Below are positions 3,429 to 17,637 of a stretch of 17,637 bases of DNA, piece by piece. The notes below the pieces were generated by a model. It did not search any database, was not told the DNA's origin, and was given only the letters and a program-made list of their open reading frames with translations. How positions within the stretch are numbered: the first letter of the stretch is position 1; the number at the start of each line of letters is the position of its first letter. The DNA lies in the IMG/VR virus record IMGVR_UViG_2579778784_000009; one strand, 5' to 3'. Position numbers and translations under genes: made by a program. Origin of the DNA: a virus. Lineage: Duplodnaviria; Heunggongvirae; Uroviricota; Caudoviricetes.

Positions 3429-4210
3429 GCTGCCACCTTCTGCTCAGTGGCTTTCTGTTTCAGGAATCCAAGAGCTTTCACTGCTTCGGCCTGTGTCAGT
3501 TCTGACGATGCGCGAATGTCGCGGCGAAATATCTGGGAACAGAGCGGCAATAAGTCGTCATCCCATGTTTTATCCAGGGCGATCAGCAGAGTGTTAATCT
3601 CCTGCATGGTTTCATCGTTAACCGGAGTGATGTCGCGTTCTGGCTGACGTTCTGCAGTGTATGCAGTATTTTCGACAATGCGCTCGGCTTCATCCTTGTC
3701 ATAGATACCAGCAAATCCGAAGGCCAGACGGGCACACTGAATCATGGCTTTATGCCGTAACATCCGTTTGGGATGCGACTGCCACGGCCCCGTGATTTCT
3801 CTGCCTTCGCGAGTTTTGAATGGTTCGCGGCGGCATTCATCCATCCATTCGGTAACGCAGATCGGATGATTACGGTCCTTGCGGTAAATCCGGCATGTAC
3901 AGGATTCATTGTCCTGCTCAAAGTCCATGCCATCAAACTGCTGGTTTTCATTGATGATGCGGGACCAGCCATCAACGCCCACCACCGGAACGATGCCGTT
4001 CTGCTTATCAGGGAAGGCGTAAATTTCTTTCGTCCACGGATTAAGGCCGTACTGGTTGGCGACGATCAACAATGCGATGAACTGCGCATCGCTGGCATCA
4101 CCTTTAAATGCTGTCTGGCGAAGAGTGGTGATCAGTTCCTGTGGGTCGACAGAATCCATGCCGACACGTTCAGCCAGCTTCCCTGCCAGCGTTGCGAGTG
4201 CTGTACTCAT
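3425..4210 (-). CDS. bet: Single-strand annealing protein Bet (Red beta)
   Basis: 261 aa; [66 protein letters not shown]... matches lambda Bet. Overlaps the exo start. Confidence 0.95.
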
Positions 4211-4215
4211 CCGTT

Positions 4216-4512
4216 TTATACCTCTGAATCAATATCAACCTGATGGTGAGCAATGGTTTCAACCATGTACCGGATGTGTTCTGCCATGCGCTCCTGAAAC
4301 TCAACATCGTCATCAAACGCACGGGTAATGGCTTTTTTGCTGGCCCCGTGGCGTTGCAAATGATCGATGCATAGCGATTCAAACAGGTGCTGGGGCAGGC
4401 CTTTTTCCATGTCGTCTGCCAGTTCTGCCTCTTTCTCTTCACGGGCGATCTGCTGGTAGTGACGCACCCAGCTCTGAGCCTCAAGACGATCCTGAATGTA
4501 ATAAGCGTTCAT
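4216..4512 (-). CDS. gam: Host-nuclease (RecBCD) inhibitor Gam, short form
   Basis: 98 aa starting [15 protein letters not shown], equal to the GamS portion of lambda Gam. AGGAG RBS upstream of ATG 4512. Confidence 0.9.
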
Positions 4513-4586
4513 GGCTGAACTCCTGAAATAGCTGTGAAAATATCGCCCGCGAAATGCCAGGCTGATTAGGAAAACAGGAAAGGGGG

Positions 4587-4997
4587 TTAGTGATTCAGGC
4601 CGTTGCCGCGTCCGTCGAGAAAAACTTCCACGAGCAAGTCACGGGTATAAGTGCGCTCGATGCCGCGATGCAGATAAAGCCGTCCGCGTAAATTAGCTGA
4701 TGCAGTCCAGGTACCATCTTTGTGTTTGACCAGCATTCCTGGCATGACCGCACCGCGATTAACGGTCTGTGTTCCGTAATGTTGATGAACCATAAAAACT
4801 CCTGCCCGTAAGCTGGGCTGCTGAACATATAGAGACTTCTGCGCGTATTCAGGCGGTGGATGGCCGCCGGTTGTCATAACTAAACCGCCTCGTTGAAGCG
4901 ACTGAGGTATGAAATGTTGAGTTAATTTCAGCTGGTCACACCGACGTTCACGCGTCCGTTTCACCCCTCGCACTCCCCGAAGCCTGCTGAAATTCAA
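4587..4997 (-). CDS. Hypothetical protein at the first position of the pL operon; start uncertain
   Basis: 136-aa ORF whose track start is TTG. Internal ATGs at 4877 (GAGG upstream) and 4793 (GGAG 5 nt upstream). Arg-rich N-terminal stretch ([15 protein letters not shown]). Confidence 0.35.
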
Positions 4998-5065
4998 ACT
5001 GCGGATCTAAGCGGTCATCGCAACGGTGAATCAGGTGGTTGCCGTATCGTTGTGTTGTTGCGATA

Positions 5066-5127
5066 TGGTGATAATAGCTATTGCTATTGGTGATATCAAT
5101 ACTTATTGCTATTGGTTGATGTGTTTT
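5066..5127 (-). promoter_or_regulatory. OL/pL-like leftward promoter with operator repeats
   Basis: Minus strand -35 TTGATA (plus 5094-5099), 17-nt spacer, -10 TATTAT (plus 5071-5076). TTGCTATTGG repeated at 5081-5090 and 5106-5115; the same 9-mer recurs in the cI-cro intergenic region. Confidence 0.55.
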
Positions 5128-5242
5128 GATATTAAATGTTTGATAGCAAAAAGAATTAATTTTGTGACTTGCATCGCATAGCGATAACTGAAGGGAGGAT
5201 GTGGTGGTTTTTCGAACGGTTTGTGTGATGAGGGGACAAAAG

Positions 5243-5268
5243 AAAACCCGGCACGGTGGCCGGGATTC
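5243..5268 (-). terminator. Putative intrinsic terminator ending the cI passenger operon
   Basis: Hairpin CCCGGC-ACGGTG-GCCGGG (5247-5264), followed on the minus strand by UUUUCUUUUG. Lies directly 3' of the ASCH gene stop. Confidence 0.5.
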
Positions 5269-5646
5269 TTACGCAGGTAGGTAAAGATATGATTGTGGTG
5301 GCTTAATATTACTACCTAGAGCAGAGATAGGAATTGGTTCTTTATATCTTTCCACTTCACCAATTTTTATTGCGTAGGCCTTTTCTCTACCTGAATAATA
5401 TGAGTCATAAAATTGCTTAGAAATACCTGCGTGCTTTTCCGTCTTTTTCCAAAGAGATTCCGGTTCGTCACTTAGTATTGATTCAATACGGAATTGACCA
5501 ACAACTTTACCTAATGGCATCGTGGCATAAATAACAACGGTGCTAATTTGCGGATTTTTGAATATACCTTTACGAAACTCGAACCGCTTTGTTCCGTTCA
5601 ATATTTTTTCTGCAAACTCAGGCTTAATGGATAATAAAACTTTCAT
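5269..5646 (-). CDS. ASCH-domain (PUA-like fold) protein, 125 aa
   Basis: N-terminus MKVLLSIKPEFAEKILNGTKRFEFRK fits the ASCH pattern. AT-rich. Overlaps the 3' end of the upstream gene by 23 nt. Confidence 0.7.
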   Translation of the reverse strand: MKVLLSIKPEFAEKILNGTKRFEFRKGIFKNPQISTVVIYATMPLGKVVGQFRIESILSDEPESLWKKTEKHAGISKQFYDSYYSGREKAYAIKIGEVERYKEPIPISALGSNIKPPQSYLYLPA

Positions 5647-6685
5647 TTATCTTGCCTAACTCGATGATCTTTAAGAACTGCTCATTTGTGAGTTTAAAGT
5701 GACTCCATCGGAATGCACGCGAACCATTTAGCCCCACATGATCTATTAAAATAGCACGATTGGGTCTCTTTGGCAAAGACAGATTGTATGTGAATCTTAT
5801 AATGAAAGGGTATCGACGTTCTTTATAGATTTTTCTGAGTTCATCTTCAGAAAATACGCTAAAACGAATACAATAGTCTACAAAACTATCTTCGCTTAAA
5901 AATTCAGAAATATTTTTTACGCTCTCAACTACACATAATGTACTGGCTACAGAACGATAGCGAGCTGGCCCTTTTTTGTCTCCGGTTCTATAGATGACAA
6001 TGATATCTCCTCTTTTCATTCCCATCACAGAACGCATTCCACATATGTAAATTTTATGAATGCTGTTAGCATGGGATATATCTTTGACAATATCTGGTGA
6101 TTCATTTACAAGTTTTGAATCAGGGAATAGTCTAGTGTGATATTCGGGATAAATCGCCAGTAAATATTTGTTGGCCCTTGATGTCATTATTCGAGGGTAA
6201 TCTAATAAAATATCACCATAAGGCTCATGCAAAGACCTCGCATATACAAACTCTTTCCCGTTATGTGTTTCTTTTTCACCATGAATGTAAAATCCGTACG
6301 TTTGGAAAAGTTTTATTAGATGGACGTGTTTGTCGAAAACAGTAACATAAATATCATCAGATTTTGATGAAAATGCATGGTCAAACGCTTTTTTTAGAAA
6401 TCGTTGTCCGCGAAGGGTGCCTTTAGATTCAAATTTGAATGTTCCTATCTTTAGATGACGTCCTGGTGGGAGCGCTGGATTAATGTCATTTGCATCATCA
6501 TTTTCTTTTAGATACATAAAACCTTCGATTTTATGCTTGTCATCATAGAGCACATAAGCTGATTCTCCTTCTCTGGCTTTTTTTTCTAACCAAAGAGGAA
6601 ACTCTTTATAATCTTTTTTTAAAGAGTCAAAAAATGGGTCATTGTGATCAAAATCAGAGAATTTCTCATATTTTAAAGTATCCAT
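5624..6685 (-). CDS. Uncharacterised protein (353 aa from ATG 6685; ORF extends to 6697) with GNAT-like N-terminal features
   Basis: Long AT-rich ORF. GGAG lies 6 nt before the second ATG. N-terminal half has the GNAT-like motif FQTYGFYIHGE. C-terminal half is unassigned. Confidence 0.7.
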   Translation of the reverse strand: MDTLKYEKFSDFDHNDPFFDSLKKDYKEFPLWLEKKAREGESAYVLYDDKHKIEGFMYLKENDDANDINPALPPGRHLKIGTFKFESKGTLRGQRFLKKAFDHAFSSKSDDIYVTVFDKHVHLIKLFQTYGFYIHGEKETHNGKEFVYARSLHEPYGDILLDYPRIMTSRANKYLLAIYPEYHTRLFPDSKLVNESPDIVKDISHANSIHKIYICGMRSVMGMKRGDIIVIYRTGDKKGPARYRSVASTLCVVESVKNISEFLSEDSFVDYCIRFSVFSEDELRKIYKERRYPFIIRFTYNLSLPKRPNRAILIDHVGLNGSRAFRWSHFKLTNEQFLKIIELGKINESFIIH

Positions 6686-6765
6686 TAAGTTCTCCATTCT
6701 AAAATGAATAATTAAGTTGTTTTACTGAATGAGCACAATGCCCGGTTGATAATTTTTAATTGGTA

Positions 6766-7458
6766 CTATCCATGCTTCCTATACGTCTGCGGCATGCTCC
6801 CAATAACTTTCCCGAAGATAAATACCCGGTTCATCTCATCTTTCTCGATCGGGTCCCACGGTGAGTAGCTTTTGTTATCAGAGATAACCAGCAGCTTATC
6901 CTTCATCATTTGCAGGCGCTTTACATGGGCTGTGTCGTCGTACAGAAACGCATAGATACCATCACCGTCGAAAGATTTAACCGTGATATCAACGAATAGA
7001 AGATCACCAGGTTCAATCGTTCCTGACATGCTGTCACCGCGTACGTTAATGATGCGGATATTTTCTGCCTTCCTACCATCGAACATGTGACGAGCATCGT
7101 CAAACGAGTACTCAACCGAGCGTAGAACTTCTACAAACTCACGGTTGATGACTCCCGGCCCGGCACTCACTTCTATATCAAGAACGTCAATTTTAAAGTA
7201 TTTGGAATAGCTGACAGCAGGCTTCCCTGATTGTTGACCGTCATTTCTCATCGGGCCTATGCCTGATGAGAGCCATTCTGTTCGAACACCCAATGCATTA
7301 GCTATTTCAACAATTTTTGTTGAGCCGCGCGCGTTGCCGCTTGTCAGTCTCCAGATTGTGGGTTGAGCTACGCCAGACGCCTTTGCAAGAGCGCCTTGAG
7401 ACATTCCAGATTGTTCCATCGCTAGGTTTAAGCGATCAGCAAGAGTTTCTTTTTTCAT
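6766..7458 (-). CDS. cI: CI-type prophage repressor (HTH plus S24 LexA-like peptidase domain)
   Basis: N-terminal HTH (SQGALAKASGVAQPTIWRL) and C-terminal VRGDSMSGTIEPGDLLFVD...VKRL (Ser/Lys dyad). Track start at 7494 is TTG. ATG at 7458 has no RBS and lies about 10 nt from a TATAAA, so the mRNA is probably leaderless like lambda cI from pRM. Confidence 0.85.
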   Translation of the reverse strand: MKKETLADRLNLAMEQSGMSQGALAKASGVAQPTIWRLTSGNARGSTKIVEIANALGVRTEWLSSGIGPMRNDGQQSGKPAVSYSKYFKIDVLDIEVSAGPGVINREFVEVLRSVEYSFDDARHMFDGRKAENIRIINVRGDSMSGTIEPGDLLFVDITVKSFDGDGIYAFLYDDTAHVKRLQMMKDKLLVISDNKSYSPWDPIEKDEMNRVFIFGKVIGSMPQTYRKHG

Positions 7459-7568
7459 AAGTTTTAATTTATACGCTTGCGTATTGATGGTCAAAACACG
7501 TTTTGCTATTGCTTGGATTAATACGCATTGCTATTATTTATTCATTGCAATACCAATAGGAATTGATA
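7459..7568. promoter_or_regulatory. OR-like divergent control region (pR, pRM, operators)
   Basis: Plus strand pR: -35 TTGCTT (7509-7514), 17-nt spacer, -10 TATTAT (7532-7537). TTGCTATTG at 7503, TTGCTATTA at 7528, related CATTGCAATA at 7544. Lies between divergent cI and cro. Confidence 0.6.
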
Positions 7569-7796
7569 ATGACAAATCAAACCATTCAACTCGCAATCAG
7601 TATTACAGGTAGTCAAAAACGACTGGCAGATCTATGCGGTGTAGCCCAACCCACAGTTTGGCGTTGGCTACACGGTGGCGGAATTGATGCCCGCTATGTA
7701 ATGAAAATTGTCTCAGCCACTGGTGGAAAGATTAAACCAGCAGATATTCGTCCCGACCTCGCACCATTGTTTAACGCGAGTAATTCTGCCGCCTAA
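7569..7796 (+). CDS. cro: Cro-like HTH regulator (YdaS-like)
   Basis: 75 aa from ATG 7569 with AGGA RBS. HTH motif SQKRLADLCGVAQPTVWRWL. First gene of the rightward operon, divergent from cI. Confidence 0.75.
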   Translation: MTNQTIQLAISITGSQKRLADLCGVAQPTVWRWLHGGGIDARYVMKIVSATGGKIKPADIRPDLAPLFNASNSAA

Positions 7797-10092: not shown

Positions 10093-10170
10093 TATTTAGG
10101 GTTATAGGTCTTAGCCCATTTTAAATGGAAGGCAGACATGCAGCCATGCATACTTCGCATGGCAACATAA

Positions 10171-10599
10171 TTATTTAGACAAACTATCTAATTTTTGCGT
10201 CGCTTTTTGTGTTAGGTCGCTGTAACTGATAAACCCTACGTTAGCACCTACAATTAACACTAAGAACACTAAGCTGCATATGGATAGAGTGGCAGATTTA
10301 TGCTTATGGAAAACAAAATATGCTACTATTGCACTTAATATGAAGGAAATGAATAGAAATATAGATGTTGATGTTTTTAGATATTTTTCAGGAAATAATG
10401 GGTGAGCAATAATGTATACAAGATTAAGTAGTATATAAATTGCTACCGGAATGAAAATCATGCTCCAGTGTGTATCTTTTTTGGGAGGGATTGGCTGCAA
10501 ATAATCAGACACCGTTTTTCCATCAGTTTCAAGAAGAATTACTAGATCTCTTACTTCACCACTGACTTGAGTGCCATCCTTAGTAGTAATGTTAATCAT
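10171..10599 (-). CDS. Small membrane protein (142 aa from ATG 10599), three predicted TM helices
   Basis: GGAGGG RBS 5 nt upstream of the ATG. Hydrophobic segments IFIPVAIYILLNLVYIIA, IFLFISFILSAIVAYFVF and LSICSLVFLVLIVGANVGFI. Very AT-rich. ATGA overlap with the upstream gene. Confidence 0.6.
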   Translation of the reverse strand: MINITTKDGTQVSGEVRDLVILLETDGKTVSDYLQPIPPKKDTHWSMIFIPVAIYILLNLVYIIAHPLFPEKYLKTSTSIFLFISFILSAIVAYFVFHKHKSATLSICSLVFLVLIVGANVGFISYSDLTQKATQKLDSLSK

Positions 10600-10973
10600 T
10601 TTTTCCCTCCAAATACGATTCCCTCTACGTCTTTGGAAGCTTTTTGTGATGACCACTCCTCTGAATCAGGTGATTTAATTAAAAATATTGTATCTCCATC
10701 AAAAATCGTATTTGTTCCGTAAAAATTTACATTTGATAGATCACCACCAAAAACCCTCTGCCCACTCGAGGTAATTGCCTCACCTAATTTAGTAAAATTA
10801 CCTGCAATAGATGATTTTCTTTTTCCACTTCTATTCAAAGTGGCTTTAATTACACCACCACCATCCTTAGAGTTAAATAATTGAATGTCCACTCCAGCAG
10901 TTGGTTGTATATATTTTGAAAGCTCTTTCTTGAACTTGTTAATATATTTATCTTTGTTTTCTTTGTTGGTCAT
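10596..10973 (-). CDS. Hypothetical Lys/Gly-rich soluble protein (125 aa)
   Basis: ATG at 10973. Translationally coupled to the membrane protein gene. AT-rich, antisense to the early-right operon. Confidence 0.6.
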   Translation of the reverse strand: MTNKENKDKYINKFKKELSKYIQPTAGVDIQLFNSKDGGGVIKATLNRSGKRKSSIAGNFTKLGEAITSSGQRVFGGDLSNVNFYGTNTIFDGDTIFLIKSPDSEEWSSQKASKDVEGIVFGGKK

Positions 10974-11240
10974 TGGTTAGATCCATAGTTCTGGCTGTGA
11001 TTAGGTGAAAGTATACAAGGTTTTTAAAGCGAAGATCACTGTTTTGGCTTCAAGATAGTTTTGATTTATCGTAATCAATCCGCCATAATCCTCTCATCGG
11101 AGCCTGAACAACTCCGGTGACTTCTGCGCATTTAAGGGGACTTAAATGCGACCACAATCTGAACTCATCACCTTGTCACAGATGCAGAAATGCACCTGCG
11201 ATGTCTTGCATCCAGCGTTTGATCTCTGCGGAGGTGAAGC

Positions 11241-13302: not shown

Positions 13303-14385
13303 TTAGAACTGATAAACCAGACCTACAGCGACGATGTCGTCGGTATCAATACCAGCTGTTTTGGTAAACTTACTATCGTCAATTAAGTTGATTTTGTAAT
13401 CAACAAAAGTGGACATGTTTTTATTAAAGTAGTAAGTAGCACCGACATCGACATACTTGACTAAGTCTCGGTCACCATGAACACCAAGGTCTTTACCTTT
13501 TGACTGAAGGTAAGCAACAGATGGACGCAGACCGAAGTCAAACTGATATTGTGCTACTGCTTCAAAGTTTTGTGCTTTGTTTGCAATATGGTTATTACCA
13601 AAAACGGTCATATTCTGAGTTTCAGAATATGTGGTAGCCAGATAGATATTGTTCGCATCATATTTCAGGCCTGCAGCCCATACTTCCGCATTTTTGCCGG
13701 AGGCATTGAATTTGCTCTTACCATAGGCGACCTGACCGTCAGTGCGATCTGATTTAGCATAGGTTGCACCCACGCCGAATCCTTCATACTCATAAGTAGT
13801 GGAGAAACCGAAACCATCACCATTGGCTTCAGTTACGTCAGTGCGGTCATTTTTACCCTGATACTGAGCAGCAAAGTTCAGGCCATCGACCAGACCAAAG
13901 AAGTCGTTGTTACGATAAGTTGCAACACCAGTAGTGCGACCAGTCATGAACACATCTGTTTGGGTCCAGGTATCACCACCGAATTCTGGCAGAACGTCAG
14001 TCCACGCACCGATGTCGTATGCTACACCGTAGTTACGGCCGTAATCGATTGAGCCGTAATCACCAAATTTCAGGCCTGCAAATGCAAGACGGGTTTTGTC
14101 TTTGGAAGAACCTTGAGATTCAGCACGGTTGCCTTTGAATTCATATTCCCACTGACCGAAACCAGTCAGTTGATCGTTGATTTGGGTTTCACCTTTGAAG
14201 CCAAGACGGGCATAAGTAGTATCACCATCATCTGCATCATTAGAGGAGAAGTAGTGCTTGGCATTAACTTTCCCGTATAGATCCAGCTTGTTACTGTCTT
14301 TATTATAAATTTCAGCTGCCTGAGCAGACATCGCCATCAGTACTGATGCAGCTACAGCAGAAATTGCCACTGTTAATTTTTTCAT
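13303..14385 (-). CDS. nmpC: OmpC-family porin, NmpC/Lc type (phage-borne)
   Basis: Signal peptide [23 protein letters not shown], then [16 protein letters not shown]...VGLVYQF, a classic general porin. The track ORF has a spurious 20-aa N-terminal extension. Confidence 0.9.
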
Positions 14386-14811
14386 TGTACGCCCTTTTTT
14401 TGAACTATTATTAAAAAATGATGTCACTGCGCGATAAATATTCATCTAATCAATGTGATTATTTCAAGATGTAAGTTTTAGTTTCTCATTTAATTTGTGA
14501 AGTAGATCTCTATTTTTATCGGAACCTTTTCTATCTAATCCTATTCATGGCTCTTGTCTGAACAAAAATAAATCTATTAGCTAATTTATATTAATGGCAC
14601 TTATTTATAAGTGCTCTATAATTCTTTAGCTTAATTTAAACAAACTAAAAATAACATCGGAAATTATTAACTGGTTATTTGTTGAAGTTTTCTTATGCAT
14701 TTGTGGTGGTGTTTTGAACACTCGGTGGCATTCTCACAAATATCATTTAGTAGTTTACGTACGTAAAAAATTGGTTATGCTGTTAAGAGTGGTTACTTCG
14801 TCACACAGCTT

Positions 14812-15189: not shown

Positions 15190-17637
<2,448 letters not shown>

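Follow-up and report, generated by a model that had tools for sequence, protein, structure and literature searches.

The window analyzed here, a 17,637-nucleotide (nt) stretch of DNA (IMG/VR record IMGVR_UViG_2579778784_000009) from a lambdoid prophage of Escherichia coli, carries between its cI repressor gene and the OL/pL region a two-gene cassette, gevT–gevA, which is the GevTA system, also catalogued as PDC-M11. Structural modeling and profile searches indicate that GevT joins a predicted GNAT acetyltransferase to a "modified-base reader" domain of the EVE/ASCH type, and that GevA is a predicted ASCH protein of family 2, akin to the Zymomonas ASCH RNase. This analysis establishes how the gevTA genes are arranged, where they lie, which domain folds they encode, that they are conserved as a pair and to which family they belong, and we favor, at a probability of roughly 55%, a reading in which it is a toxin–antitoxin (TA) or exclusion cassette expressed with cI: GevT would acetylate a substrate linked to nucleic acid and picked out by its reader domain, GevA would neutralize GevT, and a disturbance of this arrangement would arrest the cell. 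The cassette is not new, being already in the databases and the comparative-genomics literature; it is the rediscovery of a known candidate, and its remaining value is that the GevTA mechanism can be studied in E. coli, conveniently and under native regulation.

Profile searches recovered the family over the full length of both proteins. GevT matches the PADLOC model PDC-M11A (PDLC04419) at 2.1e-133, with residues 6–356 on profile positions 10–356 of 357, and GevA matches PDC-M11B (PDLC04425) at 6.8e-52 over residues 1–123; the two genes matching these hidden Markov models (HMMs) are adjacent and overlap by 23 nt. The PDC systems are 145 phage defense candidates, predicted from genes that lie inside BREX, DISARM and type I restriction–modification loci (Payne et al., bioRxiv 10.1101/2024.01.29.577857). 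The 1523-bp segment bearing the cassette is at least 99.8% identical (99.8–99.9%) in eight lambdoid coliphage records, and in phage PhiR47_2 (PV340567.1) the products of the 99.8%-identical genes are named "GevT toxin" and "GevA antitoxin", where "Gev" evidently stands for GNAT-EVE. Among 5426 complete E. coli genomes, 275 (~5%) have the segment at an identity of at least 99%, always on the chromosome. Further, (PIN)-GNAT-EVE proteins accompanied by an ASCH gene have been described as predicted TA systems that are common in beta- and gamma-proteobacterial prophages (Bell, Wolf & Koonin 2020, PMC7641849). The present copy has the same features: an N-terminal GNAT fold, a C-terminal EVE/PUA-like domain fused to it, an ASCH gene in the same operon, the same gene order and a gamma-proteobacterial prophage habitat. 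It differs from family members elsewhere in being a short form with neither a PIN nor a TIR domain and in having no AAA_17 ATPase gene alongside, with no structural difference otherwise. Thus, the initial annotation of this DNA, which had called the pair uncharacterized and new, was not borne out on either count, and the profile and structure searches that it had proposed returned the full-length PDC-M11A and PDC-M11B models, the GNAT and EVE/ASCH-type reader folds and the ASCH domain. In literature searches on GevTA and PhiR47, the only relevant item besides the prediction of Bell et al. 2020 was a Laub-lab preprint that mentions a PhiR47.1 phage.

The two overlapping same-strand genes, of 353 and 125 codons, lie 3′ of cI as had been described (Table 1). 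The gevT open reading frame (ORF) opens at an in-frame ATG at 6697 (5624–6697, 357 amino acids (aa)), with a second ATG at 6685. The latter is the likely start, as judged by a GGAG at 6695–6692, 6 nt ahead of it, and by the 353-aa length of the database cluster (P0001) that is 100% identical to GevT. More than 1600 database homologs for each of GevT and GevA argue against either ORF being a chance occurrence. Upstream, CI matches Pfam Peptidase_S24 (1.5e-18) and HTH_3 (a helix-turn-helix (HTH) family), as well as phrog_4 and phrog_6201 (CI-like repressor). The cI–gevT spacer, of 68–80 nt, has an unremarkable RNA fold (z = −0.02), and a scan of it for terminator-like sites and minus-strand promoter-like matches found none. 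Directly 3′ of the gevA stop, a hairpin with a 6-bp all-GC stem (CCCGGC-N6-GCCGGG) is followed by TTTTCTTTTG (5264–5237); its fold of −15.2 kcal/mol (z = −3.35) was equaled in stability by none of 200 shuffles, which bears out the hairpin-plus-U-tract terminator proposed just before OL/pL. The cI and gevTA genes are, therefore, arranged as expected for co-transcription.

The operator half-site ATAGCAA occurs eight times in the window against 2.8 expected. Five of these sites cluster at 5081–5149 and 7503–7534, flanking the immunity region on both sides, with three in the OL/pL region (5081, 5106 and 5143) and two in the OR region (7503 and 7528). On the minus strand are a pL-like promoter sequence, TTGATA-17-TATTAT (5099–5071), and, upstream of cI, a promoter-like TTGACC-17-TAAATT (7494–7466); the cro-like gene is at 7563–7796. 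The segment is AT-rich, as had been noted, with a G+C fraction of 0.34–0.37 across 5400–6800 and of ~0.50–0.54 on either side, and gevTA looks like a horizontally acquired moron.

Table 1. Coordinates of the gevTA cassette and the immunity-region features around it.
Feature	Position	Strand	Remarks
gevT (PDC-M11A)	5624–6685	−	353 aa; GNAT + PUA-like reader; ORF, Shine–Dalgarno motif, HMMs, AlphaFold2 model
gevA (PDC-M11B)	5269–5646	−	125 aa; stand-alone family-2 ASCH protein
GNAT acetyltransferase domain, GevT N-terminus	6218–6685	−	residues ~5–160 (357-aa numbering)
PUA-like (EVE/ASCH-type) reader domain, GevT C-terminus	5627–6175	−	residues ~175–357
Overlap of gevT 3′ end and gevA 5′ end	5624–5646	−	23 nt, dual-coding
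Intrinsic terminator of the cI–gevT–gevA unit	5237–5264	−	hairpin + T-tract; fold compared with shuffles
cI–gevT spacer	6686–6765	−	no terminator, no above-chance promoter
cI repressor	6766–7458	−	HTH + S24 autopeptidase; presumed upstream gene of the transcription unit
OL/pL region	5071–5149	not assigned	half-sites + promoter-like sequence; beyond the gevA terminator
OR/pRM/pR region	7466–7560	not assigned	between cI and the cro-like gene

Searches with full-length GevT against Pfam and NCBIfam returned nothing significant, and its domains searched separately gave only sub-threshold matches to EVE (E = 0.19) and Acetyltransf_10 (E = 0.14); phrog_6345 matches it at 1e-186. An AlphaFold2 model built on 52 homologs (predicted local distance difference test 88.4; predicted template-modeling score 0.86) predicts a GNAT acetyltransferase fold in the N-terminal part and a PUA-like β-barrel in the C-terminal half. 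The GNAT domain has the spermidine/spermine acetyltransferase PaiA as its best match in both sequence and Foldseek searches. The C-terminal domain matches the Zymomonas ASCH protein ZmASCH best (score 13.3), followed by the EVE proteins 2gbs, 1wmm and 2ar1 (12.6–11.8), THYN1 with 5-methylcytosine DNA (11.5), the EVE-HNH restriction enzyme VcaM4I (10.5), the N6-methyladenosine readers of the YTH family (9.3–9.7), the McrB N-terminal domain (8.8) and classical ASCH proteins such as TRIP4 and YqfB (7.6). By this ranking, the domain belongs to the modified-base-reader wing of the superfamily. The GDIIVIYRT segment in it resembles the EVE signature "GD..v.fYhS" at the level of the pattern. We also considered the C-terminal domain as a sequence paralog of GevA and rejected this, as hhalign aligned just 29 N-terminal columns at a probability of 41%; the modeled relationship between the two is at the level of the fold only.

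GevA has ASCH as its sole Pfam match (2.5e-8), with no membrane family, and its profile run against the PDB recovers ZmASCH (5guq/5gus) at 4e-18 over 120 residues. ZmASCH (ZMO0922 of Zymomonas mobilis, PDB 5GUQ) is a family-2 ASCH protein that acts in vitro as a Mg-dependent RNase on single-stranded RNA (ssRNA), and in turn scores 3e-29 on the PDC-M11B model. It binds nucleic acids and cleaves ssRNA in vitro, with Tyr47, Lys53 and Ser128 being important (PMC5615036). Most of the ZmASCH cleft residues, which have been linked to the binding and cutting of nucleic acid, are retained as invariant positions in GevA (Y47 as Y40, T49 as T42, R32 as R25, Y90 as Y83 and Q127/S128 as Q118/S119), and the position of K53 is an invariant glycine (G46). 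The homology itself is clear. The canonical ASCH motif GxKxxExR is present in GevA as GTKRFEFR. The YqfB-type N4-acetylcytidine amidohydrolases are ASCH proteins of ~100 aa with a Lys-Thr-Glu catalytic triad, whose Thr lies inside a GxKxxTxR motif. GevA has a Glu where YqfB has this nucleophilic Thr, and we rejected it as a YqfB-type enzyme on this basis.

Unlike GevA, ZmASCH is encoded without a GevT homolog beside it. In Zymomonas mobilis (3825–5447 of the locus), the gene 48 nt upstream of ZmASCH on the same strand encodes a protein of 375 aa that matched nothing in Pfam or PADLOC. Comparison of this protein with GevT gave an hhalign probability of 0.1%, and we accordingly rejected ZmASCH as a true GevA ortholog by synteny. 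The available RNase data thus describe a relative of GevA that is an orphan or has a different partner, and a GevA-type protein may have the 375-aa protein as an alternative partner.

We searched a GevT profile against 1.84 billion cluster representatives and recovered 1869 relatives at E ≤ 1e-3, 381 of them at E ≤ 1e-30. In all, GevTA/PDC-M11 spans ~1,900 clusters at 50% identity from many phyla; this very widespread system couples an acetyltransferase with two domains of the modified-base-reader type. Pairing was surveyed in 80 loci, one genome per species, drawn from the Gamma-, Beta-, Alpha-, Delta- and Epsilonproteobacteria, Bacteroidota, Firmicutes, Verrucomicrobiota and Acidobacteriota. 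A GevA homolog is present in every one of them, and in 77 it is encoded immediately 3′ of gevT on the same strand. The remaining three, all from Vibrio/Photobacterium (L013, L017 and L022), have a convergent gevA, and two of these (L013 and L022) have a gene of 506–523 aa just upstream. An Acidovorax locus (L077, 6010–9901) has two tandem GNAT-reader/ASCH pairs with a small GNAT gene between them. The gevA start motif could be located in 69 same-strand loci from many phyla, and gevT and gevA overlap by exactly 23 nt in 66 of these and by 29 nt in the other three. Such a fixed dual-coding overlap argues for obligatory coupled expression, and translational coupling of the two genes is probable.

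The genes adjoining gevTA vary in a manner typical of mobile DNA. Across the 80 loci they include AAA_17 ATPases (10 loci), integrases (5) and S24 repressors (3); restriction endonuclease genes also occur, as do SIR2, STAND and Fic genes. The cassette of Candidatus Pantoea deserta occupies the same slot as here, with cI, gevT homolog, gevA homolog and N in succession. E. coli also has a second, divergent GevTA allele with 57% identity (cluster P0111, 195 member sequences), which in GCA_012178925.1 (1–2533 of the locus) adjoins a phage-type integrase and not cI.

Among the 150 best representatives of GevT, 72 display the plain two-domain form and 32 have N-terminal extensions. Scanning some of the extended relatives against Pfam revealed an N-terminal TIR domain in one (P0243), PIN domains in two (P0300 and P0308) and an extra N-terminal ASCH domain in three of ~620 aa (P0321, P0336 and P0343). 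The TIR and PIN fusions lend the family an immune-effector flavor. P0308 combines PIN, GNAT, reader and GevA in a single chain, with the GevA profile matching residues 510–630 at 7.6e-33. This covalent fusion shows that GevT and GevA act together, either on each other or on one substrate, and leaves room for GevA as a sensor or an eraser.

The slot occupied by gevTA is the one that lambda rexAB occupies, as had been claimed (Table 1). The likeness to RexA/RexB comprises the location between cI and OL/pL, the cI strand, the presence of two genes and the terminator before pL; no terminator follows cI, and gevTA is probably expressed in the lysogen. The further claim that neither protein resembles Rex also held up: PADLOC returned PDC-M11 models only, and no Rex model is among the PADLOC or PHROGs matches of GevT and GevA, the latter matches being unrelated to Rex. 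Moreover, lambda RexB is a membrane protein, whereas GevT and GevA model as soluble and globular, and neither matches a membrane family in Pfam; the chemistry predicted for GevT is acetyl transfer as against membrane depolarization in lambda Rex. Sister phages whose gam–kil–OL and cI–cro flanks are ~97% identical carry other cargo between cI and OL: PhiR70_1 has three genes of no assigned function (1368–2890 of its locus), PhiR5_1 a pair annotated as HipA toxin and HipD antitoxin (1386–2959), and Perceval a 340-aa protein with a transmembrane protein in a RexAB-like layout (1358–2908). Since these phages carry different cassettes, the slot is a cargo-exchange hotspot in this lineage, and the HipA/HipD pair in particular supports the positional argument of the initial annotation. 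Of its proposal of a new defense or exclusion module, the PDC-M11 listing and the other cassettes in this slot leave gevTA as a bona fide candidate, and only the novelty falls away. The wider import of this slot is that the cI-proximal genes of lambdoid prophages are expressed in the lysogen and decide which other phages grow, such that knowledge of the cargo helps in predicting phage susceptibility.

The working that we propose runs as follows. In the lysogen, gevTA would be transcribed along with cI from pRM/pRE, and transcription would end at the hairpin past gevA. The GNAT domain of GevT would use acetyl-CoA to acetylate a nucleic-acid-linked substrate selected by the EVE/ASCH-type reader, most likely an aminoacyl-tRNA or another RNA, resulting in growth or translation arrest. 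GevA, with the same reader fold and coupled to GevT through the 23-nt overlap, would keep it harmless by binding GevT, by occupying its substrate or by hydrolyzing its product. Superinfection or loss of the prophage might then upset this balance and free GevT, leading to abortive-infection-type exclusion, prophage addiction or both. We favor an RNA or aminoacyl-tRNA target because GNAT toxins offer an analogy, relatives are fused to PIN domains and the homolog of GevA acts on RNA. In this scheme, the shared transcript with cI, the substrate of acetylation, the way in which GevA neutralizes GevT and the anti-phage effect are what we infer, and the assignment of GevT as toxin and GevA as antitoxin is taken from database annotation.

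The GNAT-type type II toxins TacT, AtaT, KacT and ItaT acetylate aminoacyl-tRNA. Like them, GevTA would pair a GNAT-fold toxin with a small neutralizer from the same operon, and translation arrest is a plausible shared outcome (see also Bell et al., PMC7641849). In contrast to the single-domain TacT, AtaT and KacT of ~160–175 aa, GevT has two domains over 353 aa and carries a reader; the antitoxin of those systems is an upstream DNA-binding protein of the ribbon-helix-helix (RHH)/DUF1778 type, whereas GevA is a downstream ASCH protein. No RHH or DUF1778 match was found with Pfam, and GevT showed no specific proximity in sequence or fold to TacT, AtaT, KacT or ItaT. Two further systems offer an analogy and not homology: in DarTG, a nucleic-acid-modifying toxin is accompanied by an enzymatic antitoxin that erases the mark, and in CapRel(SJ46), toxin and antitoxin are fused and the antitoxin domain senses the phage. 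Given the P0308 fusion, both are possible templates for GevA.

Several observations weigh against this reading. First, promoter-like matches in the region number 8 against 9.3 in shuffles and are, thus, not above chance, which leaves the transcription architecture as an inference. For the same reason, we do not claim a pLIT-like internal gevA promoter, TTGCCA-17-TATTTT (5776–5748). Second, the acetyl-CoA loop of GevT is non-canonical, with KGTLRG aligned to QKHGLG of PaiA. Third, an S24 repressor is the upstream neighbor in just 3 of the 73 other-species loci, and we accordingly view the cI linkage as a trait that belongs to this phage lineage rather than to GevTA as a family. Fourth, the covalent fusion in P0308 is ill-suited to a simple labile-antitoxin model. 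Fifth, the source paper expressly gives PDC-M11 as no more than a candidate (bioRxiv 10.1101/2024.01.29.577857). Finally, a literature search for experiments on GevT, GevA, GevTA or PhiR47 found no experimental paper, and consequently the toxin and neutralizer roles rest on GenBank product names; the search likewise found no published anti-phage phenotype or later test of PDC-M11, and no published account of the GevTA target or neutralization mechanism.

Among the alternatives, the one that survives best, which we nevertheless regard as unlikely, is a TA system devoted purely to addiction or the stabilization of lysogeny, with no role against other phages; it would act only against cells in which the prophage is lost or inactivated, or tune the choice between lysis and lysogeny. 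The want of a published defense phenotype agrees with it, as do the toxin/antitoxin annotation and the wide occurrence of the cassette beside integrases and other mobile-element genes. Set against these are the recovery of the family as one embedded in known defense systems, its relatives fused to immune-type TIR and PIN effectors, and its residence in the classical exclusion slot of rexAB, where sister phages have other TA or exclusion-like cargo.

Somewhat less likely again is that GevTA constitutes a writer/reader, and perhaps eraser, immune module, in which the EVE-like pocket would recognize a modified or foreign base and the GNAT domain would acetylate the nucleic acid itself. The mark could be, for example, N4-acetylcytidine-like and be placed on tRNA, rRNA or phage DNA. 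GevA, far from a passive antidote, would either set GevT free on detecting nucleic acid of the phage or erase the mark as a hydrolase. The shared reader fold, the TIR, PIN and GevA fusions and the cleavage of RNA by ZmASCH make this reading compatible with the data, and, if true, it would be the first anti-phage system to work by nucleic-acid acetylation.

A related and still more doubtful alternative concerns DNA. The proposal that such enzymes acetylate a DNA base comes from Iyer et al. 2013, as cited by Bell et al. 2020 (PMC7641849). Under this proposal, GevT would write an acetyl mark on a DNA base with guidance from the EVE-like reader, thereby marking or protecting phage or host DNA, or attacking modified foreign DNA; GevA would be a second reader or an eraser, and toxicity a side effect of the DNA modification. 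The location of gevTA in the lysogenically expressed immunity region is, however, unlike that of the DNA-modifying Mom, which is among late genes. The nearest characterized relative of GevA works on ssRNA, the PIN (RNase) fusions of the family likewise point to RNA, and the database annotation is one of toxin and antitoxin.

The weakest alternative, a small-molecule acetyltransferase (for a polyamine, antibiotic or metabolite) that confers a metabolic or resistance benefit on the lysogen with GevA as an unrelated passenger, draws on the PaiA matches of the GNAT domain and is highly improbable, in that the matches themselves are weak (E 2e-5; 15 bits in NCBIfam, where the cutoff is 250), the GNAT domain is always fused to a nucleic-acid reader and paired with an ASCH gene via the conserved 23-nt overlap, and GevT has many invariant Lys/Arg residues.

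The window as a whole is the early region of the prophage, with the order int, exo, bet, gam, kil, OL/pL, gevA/gevT, cI, OR and cro-like gene, continuing through cII-like, O, P, nin-region genes, Q, porin, holin and lysozyme to an IS21 element. Between pL and kil (4587–5070), we recognized no N antiterminator. The ORF at 4587–4997 has a Kil match confined to its C-terminal 77 aa, and its upstream in-frame part, which has no Pfam match, contains an Arg-rich GVKRTRERR reminiscent of an N-type arginine-rich motif peptide. A second AT-rich island (10100–11100; G+C 0.34–0.38) separates the replication gene P from the nin region and could be another moron. It holds overlapping minus-strand ORFs at 10171–10656 (phrog_16940, with a weak seven-transmembrane-like match) and 10596–10973 (phrog_18061), to which PADLOC gave no match and no function is assigned.

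Downstream of the Q-like antiterminator, a porin gene (13303–14445, minus strand; Pfam Porin_1, 2e-151) is followed by a very AT-rich stretch (14400–14800; G+C 0.28); its product resembles the lysogenic-conversion porins of the Lc/NmpC type. The ORF at 15872–16618 gave a PADLOC "DrmD" match, which we rejected as an AAA-ATPase false positive, the gene being the IstB ATPase of IS21 (Pfam, 9e-111) and not a defense gene. It belongs to an IS21-family element (15600–17637), in which istB is followed by istA (16615–17637) running off the end of the window. This element comes directly after the 134-aa phage lysozyme ORF, which means that this copy of the prophage probably has an interrupted lysis region.

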